Assembly (NCBI RefSeq): GCF_964213995.1
Contig: NW_027590154.1
Location: 248,001 to 312,000, forward strand
DNA: 64,000 nucleotides
Origin: Mustelus asterias
Taxonomy: Eukaryota
Direction of reading: 5' to 3'
Made by a program: the position numbers and the translations under genes. How positions within the stretch are numbered: position 1 is the first letter of the stretch; every line of letters starts with the position of its first letter. Positions 10,120 to 55,952 of the stretch are shown here, piece by piece. Under the pieces are notes generated by a model. The model did no database searches and was not told the origin of the DNA. It worked only from the letters and a program-made list of their open reading frames with translations.

Positions 10120-10600
10120 ATGACACTGCGCATGCTCCACATCACAATGCCCGGGGATTGATTGACGGCAGCTCCGGACCAATAGGAAGAGGGGGCGAGA
10201 CTGGAGGACCGAGCGGGAGCGGCTGGTCCTCCAACCAATCGGAGTGAATGAGAGGCGGGACCTGAAGCATGCGCAGTGCGGGTGAACCAGATAAACCTGT
10301 TGGACTTTAACCTGGTGTTGTTTGACTTGTTGCTGTGTTTACCCCAGTCCAACGCCGGCATCTCCACATCAGTGCGGGTAATGGCGACAGACGGCCGGTT
10401 TTAGTTTGGAAGGGAGATCAATACGAGGTAGTGGGCGGCGTGCGGGGAATGATAAATGTGGCGGGTGGGTGGAGAGACTTTGTAAACATGTTGTTCAAAC
10501 CCAAACCCGGAAATGAACTTCCCGGTCCCCCCCTTTGTAGCAAATGGAGCGACAGCTTGTAGTGTTAGACCCGGGCTGACTGCCGCCATTGAGGCTGCAT
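10120..10600. promoter_or_regulatory. CpG-rich ZNF promoter cassette
   Basis: TGCGCATG and GCATGCGCA (NRF1-like), CCAAT at 10179 and 10235, GC boxes, ETS-like CCGGAAAT, dyad 10202-10233; homologous to 46250-46630. Confidence 0.75.
10284..10369 (+). mobile_element. 86-bp Penelope-like 3' terminal fragment with 10-bp TSD
   Basis: Matches the Penelope terminal unit; direct repeat cagtgcgggt at 10274-10283 and 10370-10379; empty site in the paralog near 46401-46425. Confidence 0.85.
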
Positions 10601-10960: not shown

Positions 10961-11341
10961 TGCCGGCGTTGGACTGGGGTAAGCACAGTAAGTAATCTCA
11001 CAACACCAGGTTAAAATCCAACAGGTTTATTTGGTAGCACAAGCCACAAGCTTTCAGAGCGCTGCCCCTTCATCAGGTGAGTGGGAGTTCTGTTCACAAA
11101 CAGGGCATATAAAGACACAAACTCAATTTAAGATTATGGTTGGAATACGAGTCTTTAAACGTAATCAAGTCTTAAAGGTACAGACAATGTGAGTGGAGAG
11201 AGGGTTAAGCACAGGTTAAAGAGACGTGTATTGTCTCCAGCCAGGACAGTTAGTGAGATTTTGCAAGCCCAGGCAAGTCGTGGGGGTTACAGATAGTGTG
11301 ACATGGACCCAAGATCCCGGTTGAGGCCGTCCTCATGTGTG
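10961..11341 (-). mobile_element. Penelope-like element 3' end (ORF tail THEDGLNRDLGSMSHYL* plus terminal repeat)
   Basis: Highly similar to 28277-28670. Confidence 0.85.
11044..11080 (-). ncRNA. Minimal type I hammerhead ribozyme motif
   Basis: Minus strand UCAC-CUGAUGA-A-GGGGC agc GCUCU-GAAA-GCU-U-GUGG: complete core, stems I and II, palindromic AGCU stem III. Confidence 0.75.
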
Positions 11342-11569
11342 ATTGACAGATCCATGCTCACTGCTTCTTGCTCTGGATGCAGAGAGCTGAAAATTTCCAT
11401 GCAGGCTGCCAGACAGATAAATGTCTGCATTACTGGAGTAAAAATGTGTGGAATATACAGACCGAATTCACTTCATTTCCTTCAGTTGCTGCAAGTCCCC
11501 AACTTCCCCCAGAATGAGAAAAGAAATGGAAAGGGGGAAACATTGATTTCCTCCCAGATGTTGTCCAGA

Positions 11570-20935: not shown

Positions 20936-23560
20936 TACAAAGAACAATACAGCACAGGAACAGGCCCTTCGGCCCTCCAAGCCTGCACTGATCATGTCTT
21001 CCTAACTGGACCATCCGTTTGTATCCCTCTATTCCCAGTCTGTTCATGTGGCTATCTCAATAAGTCTTAAATGATCCTAGCATGTCTGCCTCAACCACCT
21101 TGCTTGGTAGTGCATTCCAGGCCCCCACCACCCTCTGTGTAAAATACATCCCCCGCATATCTGTATTGAACCTTGCCCCCCTTACTTTGAACTTGTGACC
21201 CCTTGTGTTTGTCATTTCTGACCTGGGAAAAAGCTTCCAACTGTTCACCCTATCTATTCCCTTCATAATTTTATAAACTTCTATAAGGTCGCCCCCTCAA
21301 CCTCCGTCTTTCCAGGGAGAACAACCCTAGTTTACTCAATCTCTCCTCATAGCGAATACCCTCCATACCAGGCAACATCCTGGTAAACTTTTTCTGCACT
21401 CTCTCCAAAGCCTCCACATCCTTCTGGTAGTGCGGTGACCAGAACTGGACACAGTATTCCAAATGTGGCCTAACCAACGTTCTATGTAACTGCAACATCA
21501 TATGCCAACTTTTATACTCTATGCCCCGTCCAATAAAGGCAAGCATGCCATATGTCTTCTTCACCACCTTTTCCACCTGTGCTGCCACCTTTAAGGATCT
21601 GTGGACTTGCACACCCAGATCCCTCTGCGTGTCTCTGCTCCTGATGGTTCTGCCATTTATCGTATAGCTCCCCCCTGCATTAGATCTACAAAATGCATCA
21701 CTTCGCATTTATCTGGATTAAATTCCATCTGCCATTTCTCTGCCCAATTTTCCAGCCTATCTATGTCCTGCTGTATTCTCTGACAATGTTCATCACTATC
21801 CGCAACTCCAGCAATCTTTGTGTCGTCCACAAACTTACTAATCAGACTAGCTACATCTTCCAAATCATTTATATATATCACAAACAGCAGAGGTCCCAGT
21901 ACAGAGCCCTGCGGAACACCTGAGTCATGATGTGGAGATGCCGGCGTTGGACTGGGGTAAACACAGTAAGAGTTTTAACAACACCAGGTTAAAGTCCAAC
22001 AGGTTTATTTGGTAGCAAATGCCATTAGCTTTCGGAGCGCTGCTCCTTTCGACCACCTGCTCCATCTGACGAAGGAGCAGCGAACAAACAACGAACAATA
22101 CAGCACAGGAACAGGCCCTTCAGCTCTCCAAGCCCACGCCACTCCCTGGTCCAAACTAGACCATTCTTTTGTATCTCTCCATTCCCACTCCGTTCCTGTG
22201 GCTATCTAGATAAGTCTTAAACGTTCCCAGTGTGTCCGCCTCCACCACTTTGCCCGGCAGCGCACTCCAGGCCCCCACCACCCTCTGTGTAAAATACATC
22301 CCTCTGATATCCGTGTTAAACCTCCCCACCACCCCCCCCCCCCCCACCTTGAACCTATGACCCCTCGTGAACGTCACCACCGATCTGGGAAAAAGCTTCC
22401 CACGTTCACCCTATCTATGCCTTTCATAATTTTATACACCTCTATTAGGTCACCCCTCATCCTCCGTCTTTCCAGTGAGAACAACCCCAGTTTACCCAAT
22501 CTCTCCTCATAACTAAGCCCTTCCATACCAGGCAACATCCTGGTAAACCTCCTCTGCGCTCTCTCTAAAGCCTCCACGTCCTTCCGGTAGTGTGGCGACC
22601 AGAACTGGGTGCAGTATTCCAAATGCGGCCGAACCAACGTTCTATACAACTGCAACATCAGACCCCAACTTTTATACTCTATGCCCTGTCCTATAAAGGC
22701 AAGCATGCCATATGCCTTATTCACTACCTTCTCCACCTGTGACGTCACCTTCAAGGATCTGTGGACTTGCACACCCAGGTCCCTCTGCGTACTTACACCC
22801 TTTATGGTTCTGCCATTTATCGTATAGCTCCCCCCTACGTTAGTTCTACCAAAATGCATCACTTCGCATTTATCAGGATTGAACTCCATCTTCCATTTCT
22901 TTGCCCAAATTTCCAGCCTATCTATATCCTTCTGTAGCCTCTGACAATGTTCCTCACTATCTGTGCTCCGAAAGCTAATGGCATTTGCTACCAAATAAAC
23001 CTGTTGGACTTTAACCTGGTGTTGTTAAAACTCTTACTGTGAACACCCTAGTCACAGCCCTCCAATCAGAAAAAGACCCCTCCACTGCTACCCTCTGTCT
23101 TCTATGGCTAAGCCAGTTCTGTACCCATCTCGCTAGTTCACCTTTGATCCCGTGAGGTTTAACCTTTTGCACCAGCCTGCCATGTGGGACCTTGTCAAAT
23201 GCTTTACAAAAATCCACGTAGACGACATCCACGGCCCTTCCCTTGTCAATCATTTTTGTCACCTCCTCAAAAAACTCAACCAAATTTCCCTCATACAAAA
23301 CCATGTTGTCTATCGCTAATGAGACTATTCAGTTCTAAATGTGTATAGATCCTATCTCTAAGAATCTTCTCCAACAATTTCCCTACCATGGACGTTATGC
23401 TCACTGGCCTATAATTGTCCGGGTTATCCTTGCTACCCTTCTTAAATAACGGGACCACATTTGCTGTCCTCCAATCCTCTGGGACCTCACCTGTGTCCAA
23501 TGAAGAAACAAAGATTTCTGTTAGAGGCCCAGCAATTTCATCTCTTGTCTTTCTCAGTAA
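20936..23560 (-). mobile_element. CR1 LINE interrupted by an inverted Penelope terminal pair (21921-23047) that is itself split by a second CR1 (22083-22963)
   Basis: RT peptides on both sides; TSD gaacacc at 21914-21920 and 23041-23047; empty site of the whole nest near 33050-33070. Confidence 0.85.
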
Positions 23561-28276: not shown

Positions 28277-28894
28277 ATGATGTGGAGATGCTGACGTTGG
28301 ACTGGGGTAAACACAGTAAGAAGTCTCACAACACCAGGTTAAAGTCCAACAAGTTTATTTGGCAGCAAAAGCCACTAGCTTTTGGAGTGCTGCTCCTTCA
28401 TCAGGTGAGTGGGAGTTCTGTTCACAAACAGGGCATATAAAGACACAAACTCAATTTACAAAATAATGGTTGGAATGCGAGTCTTTACAGGTAATCAAGT
28501 CTTAAAGGTACAGACAATGTGAATGGAGAGAGGGCCAAGCACAGGTTAAAGAGGTGTGTATTGTCTCCAGCCAGGACAGTTAGTGAGATTTTGCAAGCCC
28601 AGGCAAGTCGTGGGGCTTACAGATAGTGTGACATAAACCCAAGATCCCGGTTGAGGCCATCCTCATGTGTGCGGAACTTGGCTATCAGTTTCTGCTCAGC
28701 GATTCTGCGTTGTCGTGTGTTGTGAAGGCCGCCTTGGAGAACGCTTACCCGAAGATCAGAGGCTGAATGCCCCTGACTGCTGAAGTGTTCCTCAAGTTAA
28801 GGGAACACTCCTGCCTGGTGATTGTCGAGCGGTGTTCATTCATTCGTTGTCGTAGCGTCTGCATGGTCTCCCTAATGTACCATGCCTTGGGACA
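28277..28894 (-). mobile_element. Penelope-like element: GIY-YIG endonuclease C-terminal half plus terminal repeat with a G12>A-mutated hammerhead (28372-28408)
   Basis: CPKAWYIRETMQTLRQRMNEHR, frameshift, EHFSSQGH...AEQKLIAKFRTHEDGLNRDLGFMSHYL*. Confidence 0.88.
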
Positions 28895-30092
28895 GGAGCG
28901 GTGCCCAAGGACTGGAGGACAGCTGATATGGTACCACTCGTCAAGAAGGGAAGTAGGGAAAAAAACAACAAATTCCTGGCCAGTGAGTCTAACTTCAGCA
29001 ATAGGGAAACGATTGGAAAAAGTTCTGGGGGACAGAATTAATTTCCACTTGGGGAGGTGAGGATTAATCAAGGATGGGCAGCATGGTTTTGGCAAAGAGA
29101 GATCATGCCTTACAAATCTGGTTGAATTTTTGAGGAGGTGACTCGGTGTGTAGATGAGGGGAGTTAAGTTGATGTCGTCAACATGGACTTCATTAAGGCT
29201 TTTGACAAGGTCCCACATGGGAGGCTGACGGAGAAGGTAAAAGCCCATGGGATCCAGGGCAATTTGCCAAACTGGACCCAAAATTGTGTTTGTGACTGGA
29301 TGCCTGTGTTTAGTGATGTTCTGCAGGGATTGGTGCTGCGTTGCTTGTTGCTTGTAGTGTACGTTAATGACCTGGATATGAATATAGGAGGTATGATAAG
29401 TAAGTTTGCAGATGACACAAAAATTGATGATGTGCTAAAAACCGAGGAGCAAAACCTTAGATTACAGGACGATATCGACAGGGCGGCACAGAGGCACTGC
29501 TGCCTCACAGTGCCAGGGACCCAAGTTTGATTCCCGGCTTGCGTCACCCTCTGCGTGGAGTCTGCACGTTCTCCCCATGTCTGCGTGGGTTTCCTCCGGG
29601 TGCTCCGGTTTCCTCCCACAGTCCAAAAGATGTGTTGATTAGGTGCATTGGTCATGCTAAATTCTCCCTCAGTGTACCTAAACAGGCGCTGGAGTGTGGC
29701 GACTCAGGGATTTTCACAGTAACTTCACTGCAGTGTTAATGTAAGCCTACTTGTGACACTAGTAAATAAACCTTAAAACTTTAGTTAGATGGGCAGAACA
29801 GTGGCAAGTGGAATTCAACCCTGAAAAGATTAGGTAATTTTTGGAGGACGAGCAATGTAATGGAATGCGCAATGAATGGTCAGATCCTAGGAAGTACAGA
29901 GGATCAGAGGAACCTTGGTGTGCATGTCCATAGATCTCTGAAGACAGTAGGACAGTTACATAAGGTGGTTCAGAAGGCACATGGGATACTTGCCTTTATT
30001 AACCAAGGCATTGAATATATGGCTGTAGAGTTTCACATTCTAATCAGTATTCTGTCACTTGATTTTGTGCCTCTGTATGCCCTGTTTCCACT

Positions 30093-30129
30093 CCATCTGA
30101 CGAAGGAGCAGCGCTCCGAAAGCTTATGG
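30093..30129 (+). ncRNA. Minimal hammerhead ribozyme motif, first of tandem pair
   Basis: CCAU-CUGACGA-A-GGAGC agc GCUCC-GAAA-GCU-U-AUGG; predicted cleavage after 30125. Confidence 0.8.
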
Positions 30130-30251
30130 TATTTGCTACCAAATAAACCTGTTGGACTTTAACCTGGTGTTGTGAGACTTCTTACTGTGTTCACCCCAGT
30201 CCAACACCGGCATCTCCACATCATGGCCCTGTTTGAGAGCAGATATCCACT

Positions 30252-30288
30252 CCATCTGACGAAGGAGCAGCACTCTGAAAGCTAATGG
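30252..30288 (+). ncRNA. Minimal hammerhead ribozyme motif, second of tandem pair (weakened stem II)
   Basis: CCAU-CUGACGA-A-GGAG cagca CUCU-GAAA-GCU-A-AUGG; predicted cleavage after 30284. Confidence 0.7.
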
Positions 30289-31727
30289 CATTTGCTACCA
30301 AATAAACCTGTTGGACTTTAACCTGGTGTTGTTAAAACTCTTACTGTGTTTACCCCAGTCCAAGGCCAGCATCTCCACATCATTGAATATAAGGGCAGGG
30401 AGGTTATGATGGAGCTGTCTAAAACACTGGATAGGCCACAGCTGGAGTACTGTGTGCAGTTCTGGTCGCCACACTATAGGAAGGATGTAATTGCACTGGA
30501 GAAGGTGCAGAGGAAATTCCCCAGGGTGTTGGCTGGGCTGGAGTGTTTCAGCTATGAGGAGAGGCTGGAGAGGCTGGCATTGTTTTTCTTGGAGCAGAGA
30601 AGGGTGAGGGGGACCTGATTGAGGTGTATAAAATTCTGAGGGGCACAGATAGGGGGCATAGGAAGGAACTTTTCTCTTTAGTCGAGAGGTCAATAACCAA
30701 GGGCATGGATTTAATTTCAGGAGCAGGAGGTTTATAGGAGAAATGAGGAGAAATCTTTTGACCCAGAGGGTCATGAATCTGGAACTCAGTGCCTGAAAGA
30801 GTGGTAGAGGTGGGAACCTTCACAACATTTAAGAAGAATTTAGTTAAGCTTTTGAAATGCCTTAGCATACAAGGTTACGCACAAAGAGTGGAAAATGGGG
30901 TTGGAATAGAACGGTCCTTGATGGCCGGCACAAACACGATGGGCCGAAGGGCCTCTTTCCATGCTGTAAAACTCTATGACCACCCACGTTGGCAGCAAGT
31001 TCAATATCATCATCAGTCACAACCCCCCTGTATCTTCACTAACTGAATCAATCCATTTAAAACATTCTTAGTTGAGGTATGTAGCCATATTTCTGTTTGG
31101 CCGGCATCCTGCATGGAGATTTCCAGCTCTCTGTGTCCAGGACAGGAAGCAGTGAGCACGGATCTGTCAATCAGCCTCAATCAGCACCTTCAGGAGAATT
31201 GGGAGGGTGAATATTAGATACAGCAGAGTGAGAATGGAGGGAGAGTGTGTGGGATGGAGATTTACAGCTTTTGGAGAATAAGAGAGGAAAGAATGTTCCA
31301 GAGAAACTACAATTGTTCTGAATTTCTATCTTGTAATGACACTGATCACTTTTGTAAACACCTTTTACAGGATATTGGAAGGGGAGGATTTACAGACAGA
31401 AATCTCAAACCTAATGTCACATCAACATCTGACATCCTCACTCAATTCATCGGGGTCTGAATCTATCGATCTTTGATTCTCGAAGGAGAAATGTTTCCCT
31501 GTTCTGTCTGCTTCAAAAACTTCAATCATTTGTGTGACTGGAAAAGCACCAAGGCACTGATACACCCGAGTGAGAGTGTTCCAGTGCACTGAGTGTGGAA
31601 AGAGCTTTAACCAGTTACATTGCCTGAAAATACATCGCAGCATTCACAGCGGGGAGAGACTGTACCCGTGTTCTGTGTGAGATTTAACTGATTGTTTAAC
31701 CTGGAGAGTCACAAGGACACCCACACC

Positions 31728-32318
31728 ATGGAGAACCCGTGGAAATGTGGGGACTGCGGGAAGGGATTCATATCCCCATCTCAGCTGGAAGCTCATCAAC
31801 GCAGTCACACTGGAGAGAGACCATTCACTTGCTGTGTCTGTGGCAAGGGATTCAGTCAGTTATCAAATCTGCGGACACACCAGCGAGTTCACACTGGGGA
31901 GAGACCGTCCACCTGCTCTGTGTGTGGGAAGGGATTGACTGACTTATCCAGCCTGCGAGGACACCAGCGAGTTCACACTGGGGAGAGACCATTCACCTGC
32001 TCTCAGTGTGGGGAGGGATTCACTCAGTCATCCACCTTGCAGAGACACCAGTGAGTTCACACTGGGGAGAGACCATTCACCTGCTCTCAGTATCTAAAGG
32101 GATTCACTCAATTATCCCACCGACAGACACACCAGCGAGTTCACACTGGGGAGAGGCCATTCACCTGCTCTCAGTGTGGAAAGGGATTCACTCAGTCATC
32201 CACCCTGCGGAGACACCAGCGAGTTCACACTGGGGAGAGACCATTCACCTGCTCTCAGTGTGGGAAGAGTTTCAGAGCTTCATCCGCCCTGCTGAGACAC
32301 CAACCAATTCACGAGTGA
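31728..32318 (+). pseudogene. C2H2 ZNF pseudogene, 7 fingers, close paralog of the 14-kb gene; acceptor at 31370
   Basis: In-frame TGA at 32052-32054 (CGA>TGA in finger 4), C>Y in finger 5; 3' UTR nearly identical to 15026-15250. Confidence 0.85.
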
Positions 32319-42790: not shown

Positions 42791-43356
42791 ACAGAAGCTT
42801 GGTACAGAAGGAGGCCATTTGGCCCACCATGTCTGCACCAGCTCTCCAAATGAGCATTATGGCTTTGTGCCATTCTCCTGCCTTTTCCCCATGCCCCATG
42901 TTAGTAAACTTCATCAGCTATCCAGCTCTTCACTCCCCCGAGAAATCAGATGAAGATTTTTGGAGTCTACAATTGGCCTTTATTCAAGTTATAACAGGGC
43001 AAACTGGTTTCCACACATGTGGCTACAGACTCCTAGAACAAAGGAATACAATAGAATACAATTATACCTTTAGGATCAACTACAGGTAATTAACATACAC
43101 AGATTGAAATTTTACTCCAAACTAATAGTTCTGATTACTTCATTTGTTTCCCATAGTAGTGTTTAACCAATTACACCAACTCCACTTTTCCCTAATTACA
43201 ATATCCAATCATCAATAGGGCACGTACACATAGCTACATTATCAATAAACATGTGTCTATGGTCCTTGATTGTCTGGCAACCTGAGTAGTGTGTTTTGAT
43301 AGAAGTGTTATGACTTCTGTCAAAACACACTGCAGTCCTGGGCTGTTATTTGAAGT

Positions 43357-43635
43357 ACAGCAGGTTTATTTGGTAGCAAATACCATTAGCTTTCGGAGCG
43401 CTGCTCCTTCGTCAGATGGAGTGGAAATCTGCTCTCAAACAGGGCACAGAGACACAAAATCAAGTTACAGAATACTGATTAGAATGCAAATCTCTACAGC
43501 CAACCAGGTCTTAAAGATACAGACAATGTGAGTGGAGGGAGCATTAAGCACAGGTTAAAGAGATGTGTATTGTCTCCAGACAGGACAGCCAGCAAGTCCA
43601 GGAGGCAAGCTGTGGGGGTTACTGATAGTGTGACA
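43357..43635 (-). mobile_element. Penelope-like 3' fragment
   Basis: Homologous to 11020-11303 and 30020-30150. Confidence 0.85.
43383..43419 (-). ncRNA. Minimal hammerhead ribozyme motif, intact
   Basis: Minus strand CCAU-CUGACGA-A-GGAGC agc GCUCC-GAAA-GCU-A-AUGG. Confidence 0.8.
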
Positions 43636-52714: not shown

Positions 52715-52813
52715 AACATTTATATTTGAAGAGGTTCCCAGTCTGTGCAGCAGAACTGGGGAAGCCTTTGGGCAGAGACTGTGCTGCTGTTTACCCTTCT
52801 GATCGATGGTAGT

Positions 52814-52884
52814 CATGATGTGGAGATGCCGGCGTTGGACTGGGGTAAACACAGTAAGAAGTTTAACAACACCAGGTTAAAGTC
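52814..52884 (-). mobile_element. ~70-bp Penelope terminal fragment without the hammerhead
   Basis: atgatgtggagatgccggcgttggactggggtaaacacagtaag...ccaggttaaagtc. Confidence 0.8.
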
Positions 52885-54349: not shown

Positions 54350-55221
54350 CTAGGGGATGGAGACCAGGATATGAAATTAGATTACTTTATTTATCCAGCT
54401 AATGTTATTGTTATTTTTCTTTTCCCAGTTCTCCTTTTTAAACTGATCATTTATTCTTGAACTTAATTTTCAATGTATACCTCCTCTTAAGCTCAGGACA
54501 CTCAGTAACCGATCTCCGTAACTATTTTCACACCTGATCTTTATTGACATTCCTTGGACAGTCCATGTCAGAAAGCACTGAAGATGTTTAATTGAAAATC
54601 AGTTGATTTTTTGACAATTCGGAACTATCCCTTATTGAAGAATATTATCACTGATATCGAGGAACGTTCACTAATCAATGATTATTTTCACAGATGGTTA
54701 CTGATCTGTAAACTGTGAATGTTGTTGTTTAAGAGTTGGGATGTAATTTCCGATCTGTGCTTCTTTATGGTGGAAATGTTTAGTAGATCGTGAGCTTAAT
54801 TCAGTTTCTCAACGTGTTTATCTGTTCATTGGACATTGGGATAATAAATCTGTGGATATCTCCATTAAAAAGTCACGTTTAAATTTTACTTTCATCATTT
54901 GCCTACCGTTTGTATTGAAGATTTTGCATTTGTGTGCGTGTGCATGAGCATCTCGTGCTCTGCATTAATCTTTGGCTCTGAGTTAATATGTGATTATGAG
55001 TGTTAATGTGCGCCTACATTTGCCAGTGATTGTTGATTGTGTAGTTGTGTGTCTGCATCTGTGCGCATATTTTATTCTTTTGTCATTGTGTATATATGAC
55101 TATTATTGTGTGAAGTCTATGAATATATATTAATGCCACTATTAATGCGTGCACATGTGTTTATGCCTATTGCTATGTGTTAATTTCTGTCACTTTAATA
55201 ATGTTTGTTTCCCTTTCTGTG

Positions 55222-55346
55222 GAGTTGCCGGCGTTGGACTGGGGTCGGCACAGTAAGTACTCTCACAGCACCAGGTTAAAGTCCAACAGATTTATTTGGT
55301 TGCACGAGCTTTCGGAGCATTGCCCCTTCATCAGGTGACTACTTAC
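55222..55346 (-). mobile_element. Solo Penelope terminal unit with 16-bp TSD in the IgM CH4-TM1 intron
   Basis: Direct repeat tgtttccctttctgtg at 55206-55221 and 55347-55362. Confidence 0.85.
55303..55337 (-). ncRNA. Minimal hammerhead ribozyme motif on the IgM sense strand
   Basis: Minus strand CAC-CUGAUGA-A-GGGGC aau GCUCC-GAAA-GCU-C-GUG. Confidence 0.72.
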
Positions 55347-55952
55347 TGTTTCCCTTTCTGTGTGCGTCTGTTTCTCCATGTATCTGTGTGCACGCCTGTT
55401 GACATGTCAGTGTATGTATACACGTGTTGAAATTCTTTATAACGGTGCGTTGATGTATATTTGTGTTTCGATGTGTAGTAATGTGTGCTATGGTGTTCTG
55501 TTCTGTGAGCATGTTAATGTTTGCGTCTACATGTTTGTGTGTAAATGTTTTGCTGTCCGTTCTTCTGTATGCAGTCTGGTGATTTGTTTATATGTATTTC
55601 CATATATGTTTGTGAATGTGTATAACATTGTGTGTCTTTATATCTATATTCCTATCAGCGTGAACGTGTGCTAATATATGTATTTATTTGAGTCTAAGTA
55701 TGTGCTTGTGTATTTATGTGGGTCTGCATGCGTGTGTATCTGTCTATTGTGTCTATGCATGTATGTGTTTGTGTTTGGGTCTGTACCTACTCACGTATGT
55801 GTATGTGTATGTACTTGTGTGTTTCATGTGTACATGTGTGCGTTTGTACATATTTGATTATGTGTGTGTGTGTTGTTGTTTTAGTGTCTGTTTGTACAAG
55901 AGCGCGTGTCTATGTGTTCGTATGTGTGTGTGTGTGTATGTGTGCGTGTGTA

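Follow-up and report, generated by a model that had tools for sequence, protein, structure and literature searches.

A tandem hammerhead insertion in a shark genome as two truncated Penelope-like element ends, probably joined from two RNAs

Two hammerhead ribozyme motifs lying head to tail inside one short insertion raise the question of whether this shark locus is the copy of a circular RNA or the remnant of a more conventional mobile element. A preliminary description of the window, by which we mean the whole 64-kb stretch of DNA analysed here, had read the pair as a retrozyme-like unit. That reading is not supported: both halves are 5'-truncated ends of an autonomous Penelope-like element (PLE), and the two templates to which they point contradict rolling-circle copying of one circle. 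The insertion is of PLE origin, its two units come from two lineages, a single target-site duplication (TSD) surrounds both, and both hammerhead halves are damaged. We consider it probable that the insertion represents two truncated PLE 3' ends of different sub-families, likely joined by the reverse transcriptase (RT) from two RNAs, and that it is probably inert.

The insertion is bounded by the 11-bp sequence CATTGAATATA, which occurs at the two sites given in Table 1, as had been claimed, and is found nowhere else on either strand of the 64-kb window. CAT, the first three letters of the right-hand copy, is also the element's own 3' end, so that the duplication proper measures 8-11 bp. Both flanks belong to a single LINE reading frame, which we take to be CR1-like, interrupted by the dimer insertion: residues 1-53 of P0029 align to 29872-30030 on the left, residues 47-123 align to 30382-30612 on the right, and the RVT_1 match to the host LINE lies further upstream of the insertion. 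Repeat copies indicate that the same LINE is also split by a SINE-like repeat at about 29480-29783. Contigs with an empty site, in which 30008 is joined to 30381 and the 11 letters fit either side, occurred in all four shark runs (at least 6, 2, 2 and 4 contigs among the 15 of 540 joints listed; these contigs may be paralogous LINE copies). The earlier view that one TSD-bounded insertion holds both units is supported. Tandem Repeats Finder (TRF) reported a repeat at 30087-30383 with a period of 159, 1.9 copies and 91% agreement, and the insertion as a whole folded no better than its shuffles (z 0.40). Rfam gave no match at gathering score in the window; three weak lncRNA matches (E 1-2.8) in 29400-30500, none of them on the element, were set aside as chance. 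Pattern scans yielded no loci in metagenome contigs and none in viral contigs, a protein scan returned a single distant locus at 30% identity that was not used, and a bacterial promoter scan stayed at chance level and is irrelevant to the locus. At 28883-28900 a PLE copy (-) and a LINE fragment (+) meet by their 5' ends, which overlap slightly in head-to-head orientation; a search for a TSD at this contact found none.

Table 1 Features of the insertion and its surroundings (window coordinates)
Feature	Position	Strand	Basis or remark
Left TSD, CATTGAATATA	30009-30019	+	11-mer match; empty-site joint in 4/4 shark runs
Unit 1, 5'-truncated 3' UTR/pseudo-LTR of a PLE, with hammerhead and tail	30020-30227	+	Alignment; family pieces reach 30227
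Hammerhead 1 (4-bp stem I, CUGACGA core, extra A, 5-bp stem II, AGCU palindrome)	30093-30129	+	Predicted cut after 30125 (CUU)
2-nt GC overlap at the unit junction, inferred template-jump point	30226-30227	+	Contigs of the family reach 30227 in unit 1 and begin to match unit 2 at 30226
Unit 2, a second and shorter pseudo-LTR end, 5'-truncated and of another sub-family; contains hammerhead and tail	30226-30383	+	Closer to copy 21926 than to unit 1
Hammerhead 2, with distal helix I arm	30238-30297	+	Predicted cut after 30284 (CUA)
PLE tail, the stretch of about 36-39 nt that separates the two 3' ends (short and long) of the family	30349-30383	+	Loose ends in contigs; counterpart at ~30190-30227 in unit 1
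Right TSD, CATTGAATATA	30381-30391	+	First 3 letters common to the element's 3' end
Host decayed LINE, 3' part of reverse transcriptase	28883-30857	+	RVT_1 match; contiguity with P0029/P0036/P0038
Frameshifted sister copy in which this 3' end is linked to a PLE GIY-YIG endonuclease C-terminus	28277-28900	-	Peptide match

The element to which both units belong accounts for 10 insertions (11 units) in the 64-kb window, with scattered 5' ends and a common 3' end, as expected of variable 5' truncation. Eight of the 11 units stop at a long 3' end, one (copy 22965) at a short end ~37 nt earlier, and two are cut earlier. The end of the open reading frame (ORF) is reached by 3 of the 10 insertions (28277-28900, 10961 and 43350), and the focal dimer insertion itself holds no ORF. 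The peptide of copy 28277-28900 is identical at 52 of 57 positions (91%) to the C-terminus of a 643-aa shark RT protein. The homologues that carry a name come from sharks, which suggests that the window is shark DNA. Among relatives, P0004 has a GIY-YIG Pfam match and P0007 an RT domain; Pfam gave no match on the two short endonuclease peptides themselves. All five relatives checked carry a CX4CXXC linker, which between RT and endonuclease (EN) is a trait of Neptune and Nematis (PMC8557442), and by this Cys linker the family is provisionally assigned to the Neptune/Nematis type. Loose ends of family contigs in the shark runs pile up behind 30186-30189 and behind 30222-30227. In run X1, at least 456 + 371 contigs leave the element behind 30188/30189 and at least 461 + 364 behind 30224/30225, running into unrelated flanks (agreement 0.33-0.34; among the 24 of 409 rows listed). 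These are assembled contigs of what may all be other species, the best share of words being 0.47 among the 24 runs listed, none of which was listed as RNA. A tail of 30-40 bp is a known PLE feature (PMC8557442) and has been traced to two RT start sites (PMC11167929). Because the sister copy links the 3' end to the ORF and the family has two 3' end points, both units are, judged by their sequence, 3' pseudo-LTR (pLTR) ends of an endonuclease-bearing (EN+) PLE. Our literature search found no study of this shark family, and preprint supplements, which include the retrozymes of one chondrichthyan, may contain it.

Several other copies in the window show how the family inserts. The TSD-bearing copies at 10275-10381 (+), 55202-55362 (-) and 30009-30391 (+) have duplications of 10, 16 and 11 bp, and in these three clear cases, out of 10 copies examined, the right duplication begins with 2-4 letters that also form the 3' end of the element, which suggests primer-template microhomology. 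Copy 21927-22082 (-) bears a 23-nt inverted 5' piece that mirrors the first half of the hammerhead, a typical inverted PLE junction folding back inside the ribozyme. Copy 52800-52815 (-) runs past the usual end into ATG ACT ACC ATC GAT. If these are the opening codons of the PLE ORF, as they may be, the long RT start would lie at the start codon. Copy 10961-11447 (-), cut by a SINE-like repeat, sits inside a small upstream exon-like stretch of a paralogous zinc-finger (ZNF) gene, and this stretch is homologous to 31062-31173. In dozens of contigs the short 3' end, at 30184-30191, is joined to 30223-30225 on the opposite strand, the long 3' end in inverted orientation; such tail-to-tail joints recur in other shark genomes, with 5, 17, 15 and 3 contigs in X1.

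The two units are in tandem, as had been described, but they are not equal copies of one monomer, measuring about 208 nt (unit 1) and 158 nt (unit 2). Unit 1 is 85% identical to copy 43350-43502 and 80% identical to copy 28277-28490, carries a 12-nt deletion near 30085 with TTT microhomologies on either side, and ends in GGC, the family's own continuation past CAT. Unit 2 agrees with copy 21926 at 116 of 120 positions and with unit 1 at 108 of 120. It has a four-site block and one more site in common with window copies 21926 and 22965; at these diagnostic sites unit 1 shows the alternative states, together with copies 43350 and 28277. Comparison with the window copies thus confirms the site differences noted earlier and indicates that the units descend from two lineages, and hence from two templates.

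These observations bear directly on an origin as a non-LTR retrozyme, in which a double hammerhead would free a 159-nt monomer that then closed into a circle and entered the genome after copying through more than one turn. Such an origin would account for head-to-tail units with minimal hammerheads and palindromic AGCU, for which a nested double-hammerhead fold is possible, and the monomer falls within the 150-450 bp range reported for retrozymes (PMC7229834). The operational screen of a recent preprint (bioRxiv 10.64898/2026.07.22.740005), applied here with TRF and fold energies, would likewise count the locus as a dimer, since it is a TRF tandem with two motifs each below -5 kcal/mol, and one contig with a similar junction was found in run X8. 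Circling would, however, give identical units and place junction sequence upstream of hammerhead 1. Instead, the alignment upstream of unit 1 continues into ordinary PLE 3' UTR with no turn round a 159-nt circle, and the contigs matching the start of unit 2 come from the same PLE 3' UTR (63 in X1, 16 in X8). The different sub-family states of the units are impossible from one circle, and the focal dimer is the only one among the 10 insertions, with no longer array within the 64-kb window. We therefore regard a retrozyme origin as highly improbable.

Joining of two PLE ends by RT accommodates both the two lineages and the single TSD. The endonuclease would nick the AT-rich LINE target, and the CAT common to the target and the RNA end would prime copying at the family's long 3' start. 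After 158 nt the cDNA would halt and, by way of the 2-nt GC overlap, jump to another RNA at its long 3' start; copying would end 208 nt later, and end repair would leave the 8-11-bp duplication. Since both cDNAs extend across their predicted cut sites, the RNA templates had likely not been cleaved; uncut RNA served as a template in vitro for the Anolis Poseidon element PAc (PMC11167929). The 159-nt spacing would then be an accident that reflects the point at which unit 2 was truncated. PLEs normally leave partial tandems of 5'-truncated copies (PMC8557442, PMC2377424). Of the RT switching between two templates proposed in the preliminary description, the two lineages are borne out, and the jump itself likely took place at the 2-nt microhomology; the case for it comes from one locus and that overlap. 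A source tandem, gene conversion or two insertions would leave nearly identical sequence.

The first of these supposes that the chimeric tandem pre-existed in the source element (or that one unit was later gene-converted) and was copied whole from a single RNA. That one TSD encloses both units fits this account, as does the report that active PLEs are themselves partial tandems (PMC2377424). A similar junction is also present in a contig of another organism in X8 (depth 7.76), which spans 30152-30272 with 8 mismatches and 5 gap letters and is the one bridging contig among the 32 of 60,359 pieces listed. The junction is thus not strictly unique to the window, and the contig may represent either this locus, if it is old, or a join that recurs. 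None of the eight pieces listed for each of X1, X15 and X17 crosses the junction, which is not taken as evidence because short junction contigs could lie among the 60,327 other pieces. Within the 64-kb window itself, however, the 30225/30226 junction has no second copy, and other joints that run, without change of strand, from the 3' part of the element to its 5' part fall at seven different position pairs with 1-2 contigs each (near single-copy depth; among the 15 of 33 joints listed, for which the letters between the joined ends are not given). A source tandem would, moreover, only shift the two-template event to an earlier locus, and we think it unlikely. Two separate insertions, with one copy landing at the edge of an earlier one, would explain why the units come from different sub-families. 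PLEs have a tendency to land within or beside earlier copies (review, PMC6765202), and AT-rich DNA inside its own pLTR is cleaved by PAc (PMC11167929). Against this, there is a single TSD, outside both units, and no second duplication was found round either unit, one confined to the common 3' letters being invisible. The GGC past the CAT of unit 1 is family continuation, so that unit 1 probably never joined the right-hand target directly. Two insertions are accordingly very unlikely, and joining by RT from two RNAs remains our preferred explanation.

Whether the pair could still act as a ribozyme depends on the condition of its parts. The hammerhead cores were located at 30097-30124 and 30256-30283, and the pattern has six matches in the window vs none in 100 shuffles, in line with the predicted cuts, 159 nt apart, of the preliminary description. 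Position N17 is U at 30125 and A at 30284. Each unit has the core, the extra base before stem II and the palindromic stem III of a minimal, dimer-type type I hammerhead; the AGCU palindromes had been recognised before, and the cores are invariant. Hammerhead 1 lacks the 5' arm of distal helix I, removed by the 12-nt deletion. Stem II of hammerhead 2 has a C.A mismatch at 30272 and a G.U at 30276 in place of G10.1-C11.1, a pair kept in unit 1; both are CpG-type changes at sites where the family majority carries an intact G and C. The U17 of unit 1 was considered as a further local decay and rejected, as T is common there in the family and A makes up only 1.78 of 4.70 million depth in X1. The motifs fold at -10.7 and -6.4 kcal/mol. 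Stem II contributes -5.8 kcal/mol vs -1.7 once damaged, and its pairing probability is 0.75 in the intact copy 43388, 0.16 in unit 1 and 0.02 in unit 2.

The proposed pairing of the AGCU palindromes into a double hammerhead is possible as a nested fold in which all four stem I and stem III pairs are canonical. In that fold, the core of unit 1 meets the cut site of unit 2 with an intact stem II and only a 4-bp stem I, and the damaged core of unit 2 meets the cut site of unit 1. The full dimer fold is predicted to cost 16.8 kcal/mol over the ensemble, the half cutting after 30284 costing 7.3 and the half cutting after 30125 costing 11.6 kcal/mol; these energies come without an intact-dimer control and take no account of tertiary contacts, Mg or assistance from protein. 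Folding of the predicted 159-nt circle does not stand out from that of its shuffles (z -1.3), 33 of 300 of which do equally well, and both this and the dimer cost speak against a retrozyme. Double cleavage of the dimer is unlikely on these models, which predict at most one weak cut, after 30284, if the locus is transcribed. Both halves being damaged, and both cuts being required, the prediction is that little of the 159-mer would be released. Cleavage by PLE minimal hammerheads is weak even in the dimeric form (PMC4209133), the PAc hammerhead required its protein (PMC11167929), and eight of nine predicted Xenopus dimers showed no cleavage (bioRxiv 10.64898/2026.07.22.740005), which likewise tells against a retrozyme here. 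For the intact copy at 43364-43441 (-), the predicted fold on its own comprises stem II, a stem I of 4 bp and two additional helices (z -3.0; 1 of 200 shuffles). Its helix I is extended by helices of 7 bp and 6 bp, with one compensatory change between sub-families. Over seven copies, 92% of 116 stem cells pair vs 31-48% when the structure is slid, and the stems hold seven double changes, a number reached in 5 of 500 shuffles (seven related rows, with the structure taken from one of them).

The dimer belongs to a known kind, the partial-tandem insertions of PLEs, and the closest system is that of partial-tandem, 5'-truncated insertions of C-terminal EN+ PLEs of the Neptune/Nematis type (PMC8557442, PMC3846280, PMC2377424). 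Points of likeness are the hammerhead-bearing pLTR after a GIY-YIG ORF, the heavy 5' truncation and head-to-tail order, the 30-40-nt tail, the 8-11-bp TSD, the Cys linker in the family's proteins and the inverted 5' piece in sister copy 21926-22082. Unlike in those tandems, both partners here are truncated inside the pLTR with no ORF between them, and they come visibly from different sub-families. The ribozymes resemble the minimal hammerheads (min-HHR) of metazoan PLEs (Cervera and De la Pena 2014, PMC4209133) in the CUGAYGA core, the extra nucleotide before stem II, the short stem I, the palindromic 15.2-16.2 and a G10.1-C11.1 pair conserved in the family. The shark family, judged from seven related rows, may also show covariation in stem I. 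Helix I of the shark family, unlike min-HHR, carries two further helices; at the locus itself, G10.1-C11.1 is missing from unit 2 and the distal helix from unit 1.

Animal non-LTR retrozymes (PMC7229834; bioRxiv 10.64898/2026.07.22.740005) have in common with the locus a non-coding tandem with a type I hammerhead per unit, a GC content of 47%, a TSD of >4 bp and an ancestry in PLE pLTRs. The locus differs from them in that its units are unequal and of two lineages rather than repeats of one monomer, that unit 1 enters PLE UTR, that there is no array, and that the hammerheads are minimal and not canonical. PAc, the Poseidon element of Anolis (PMC11167929), is comparable in its two 3' end points separated by a tail, its AT-rich target and its likely uncut RNA template, but it is of a different clade than the shark element. 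Initiation in PAc was reported to be non-homologous to the cut DNA, whereas here all three TSD-bearing copies, a small sample, share 2-4 letters with it (PMC11167929).

The neighbourhood of the locus includes ZNF sequences, and the preliminary description had noted a ZNF acceptor ~1 kb downstream in sense orientation. The acceptor at 31370/31371 does lie 980 nt downstream of the insertion on the same strand, and a further candidate acceptor was seen at 31140. A link between the insertion and the ZNF acceptor is unsupported. The exon behind 31370/31371 has four in-frame stops before its end and fingers in two frames, and with 10 insertions and several ZNF arrays in the same 64 kb, the proximity requires no explanation; an effect of the dimer on the ZNF gene was rejected for want of support. 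C2H2 zinc-finger arrays are found on both strands, at 31371-32318 (+) and near 8.1-9.1, 14.0-15.0, 39.6-40.2, 44.5-45.6 and 50.0-50.5 kb, and the array at 31.4 kb contains in-frame stops and a frameshift.

Taken by itself the locus matters little, being the degraded remnant of a highly abundant element, lodged in a LINE that is itself dead. It is probably the ordinary footprint of a very common shark jumping gene and not the copy of a circular RNA. More tentatively, and with some doubt on our part, the locus may illustrate how Penelope tandems are built from two RNA molecules within one insertion, the enzyme restarting at the long 3' start of the second RNA. If this is true, tandem partners genome-wide would differ in sub-family as often as RNA abundance predicts. 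The two-RNA jump would then explain the regeneration of pseudo-LTRs, and it would set two hammerheads 100-300 nt apart, seeding new retrozymes.
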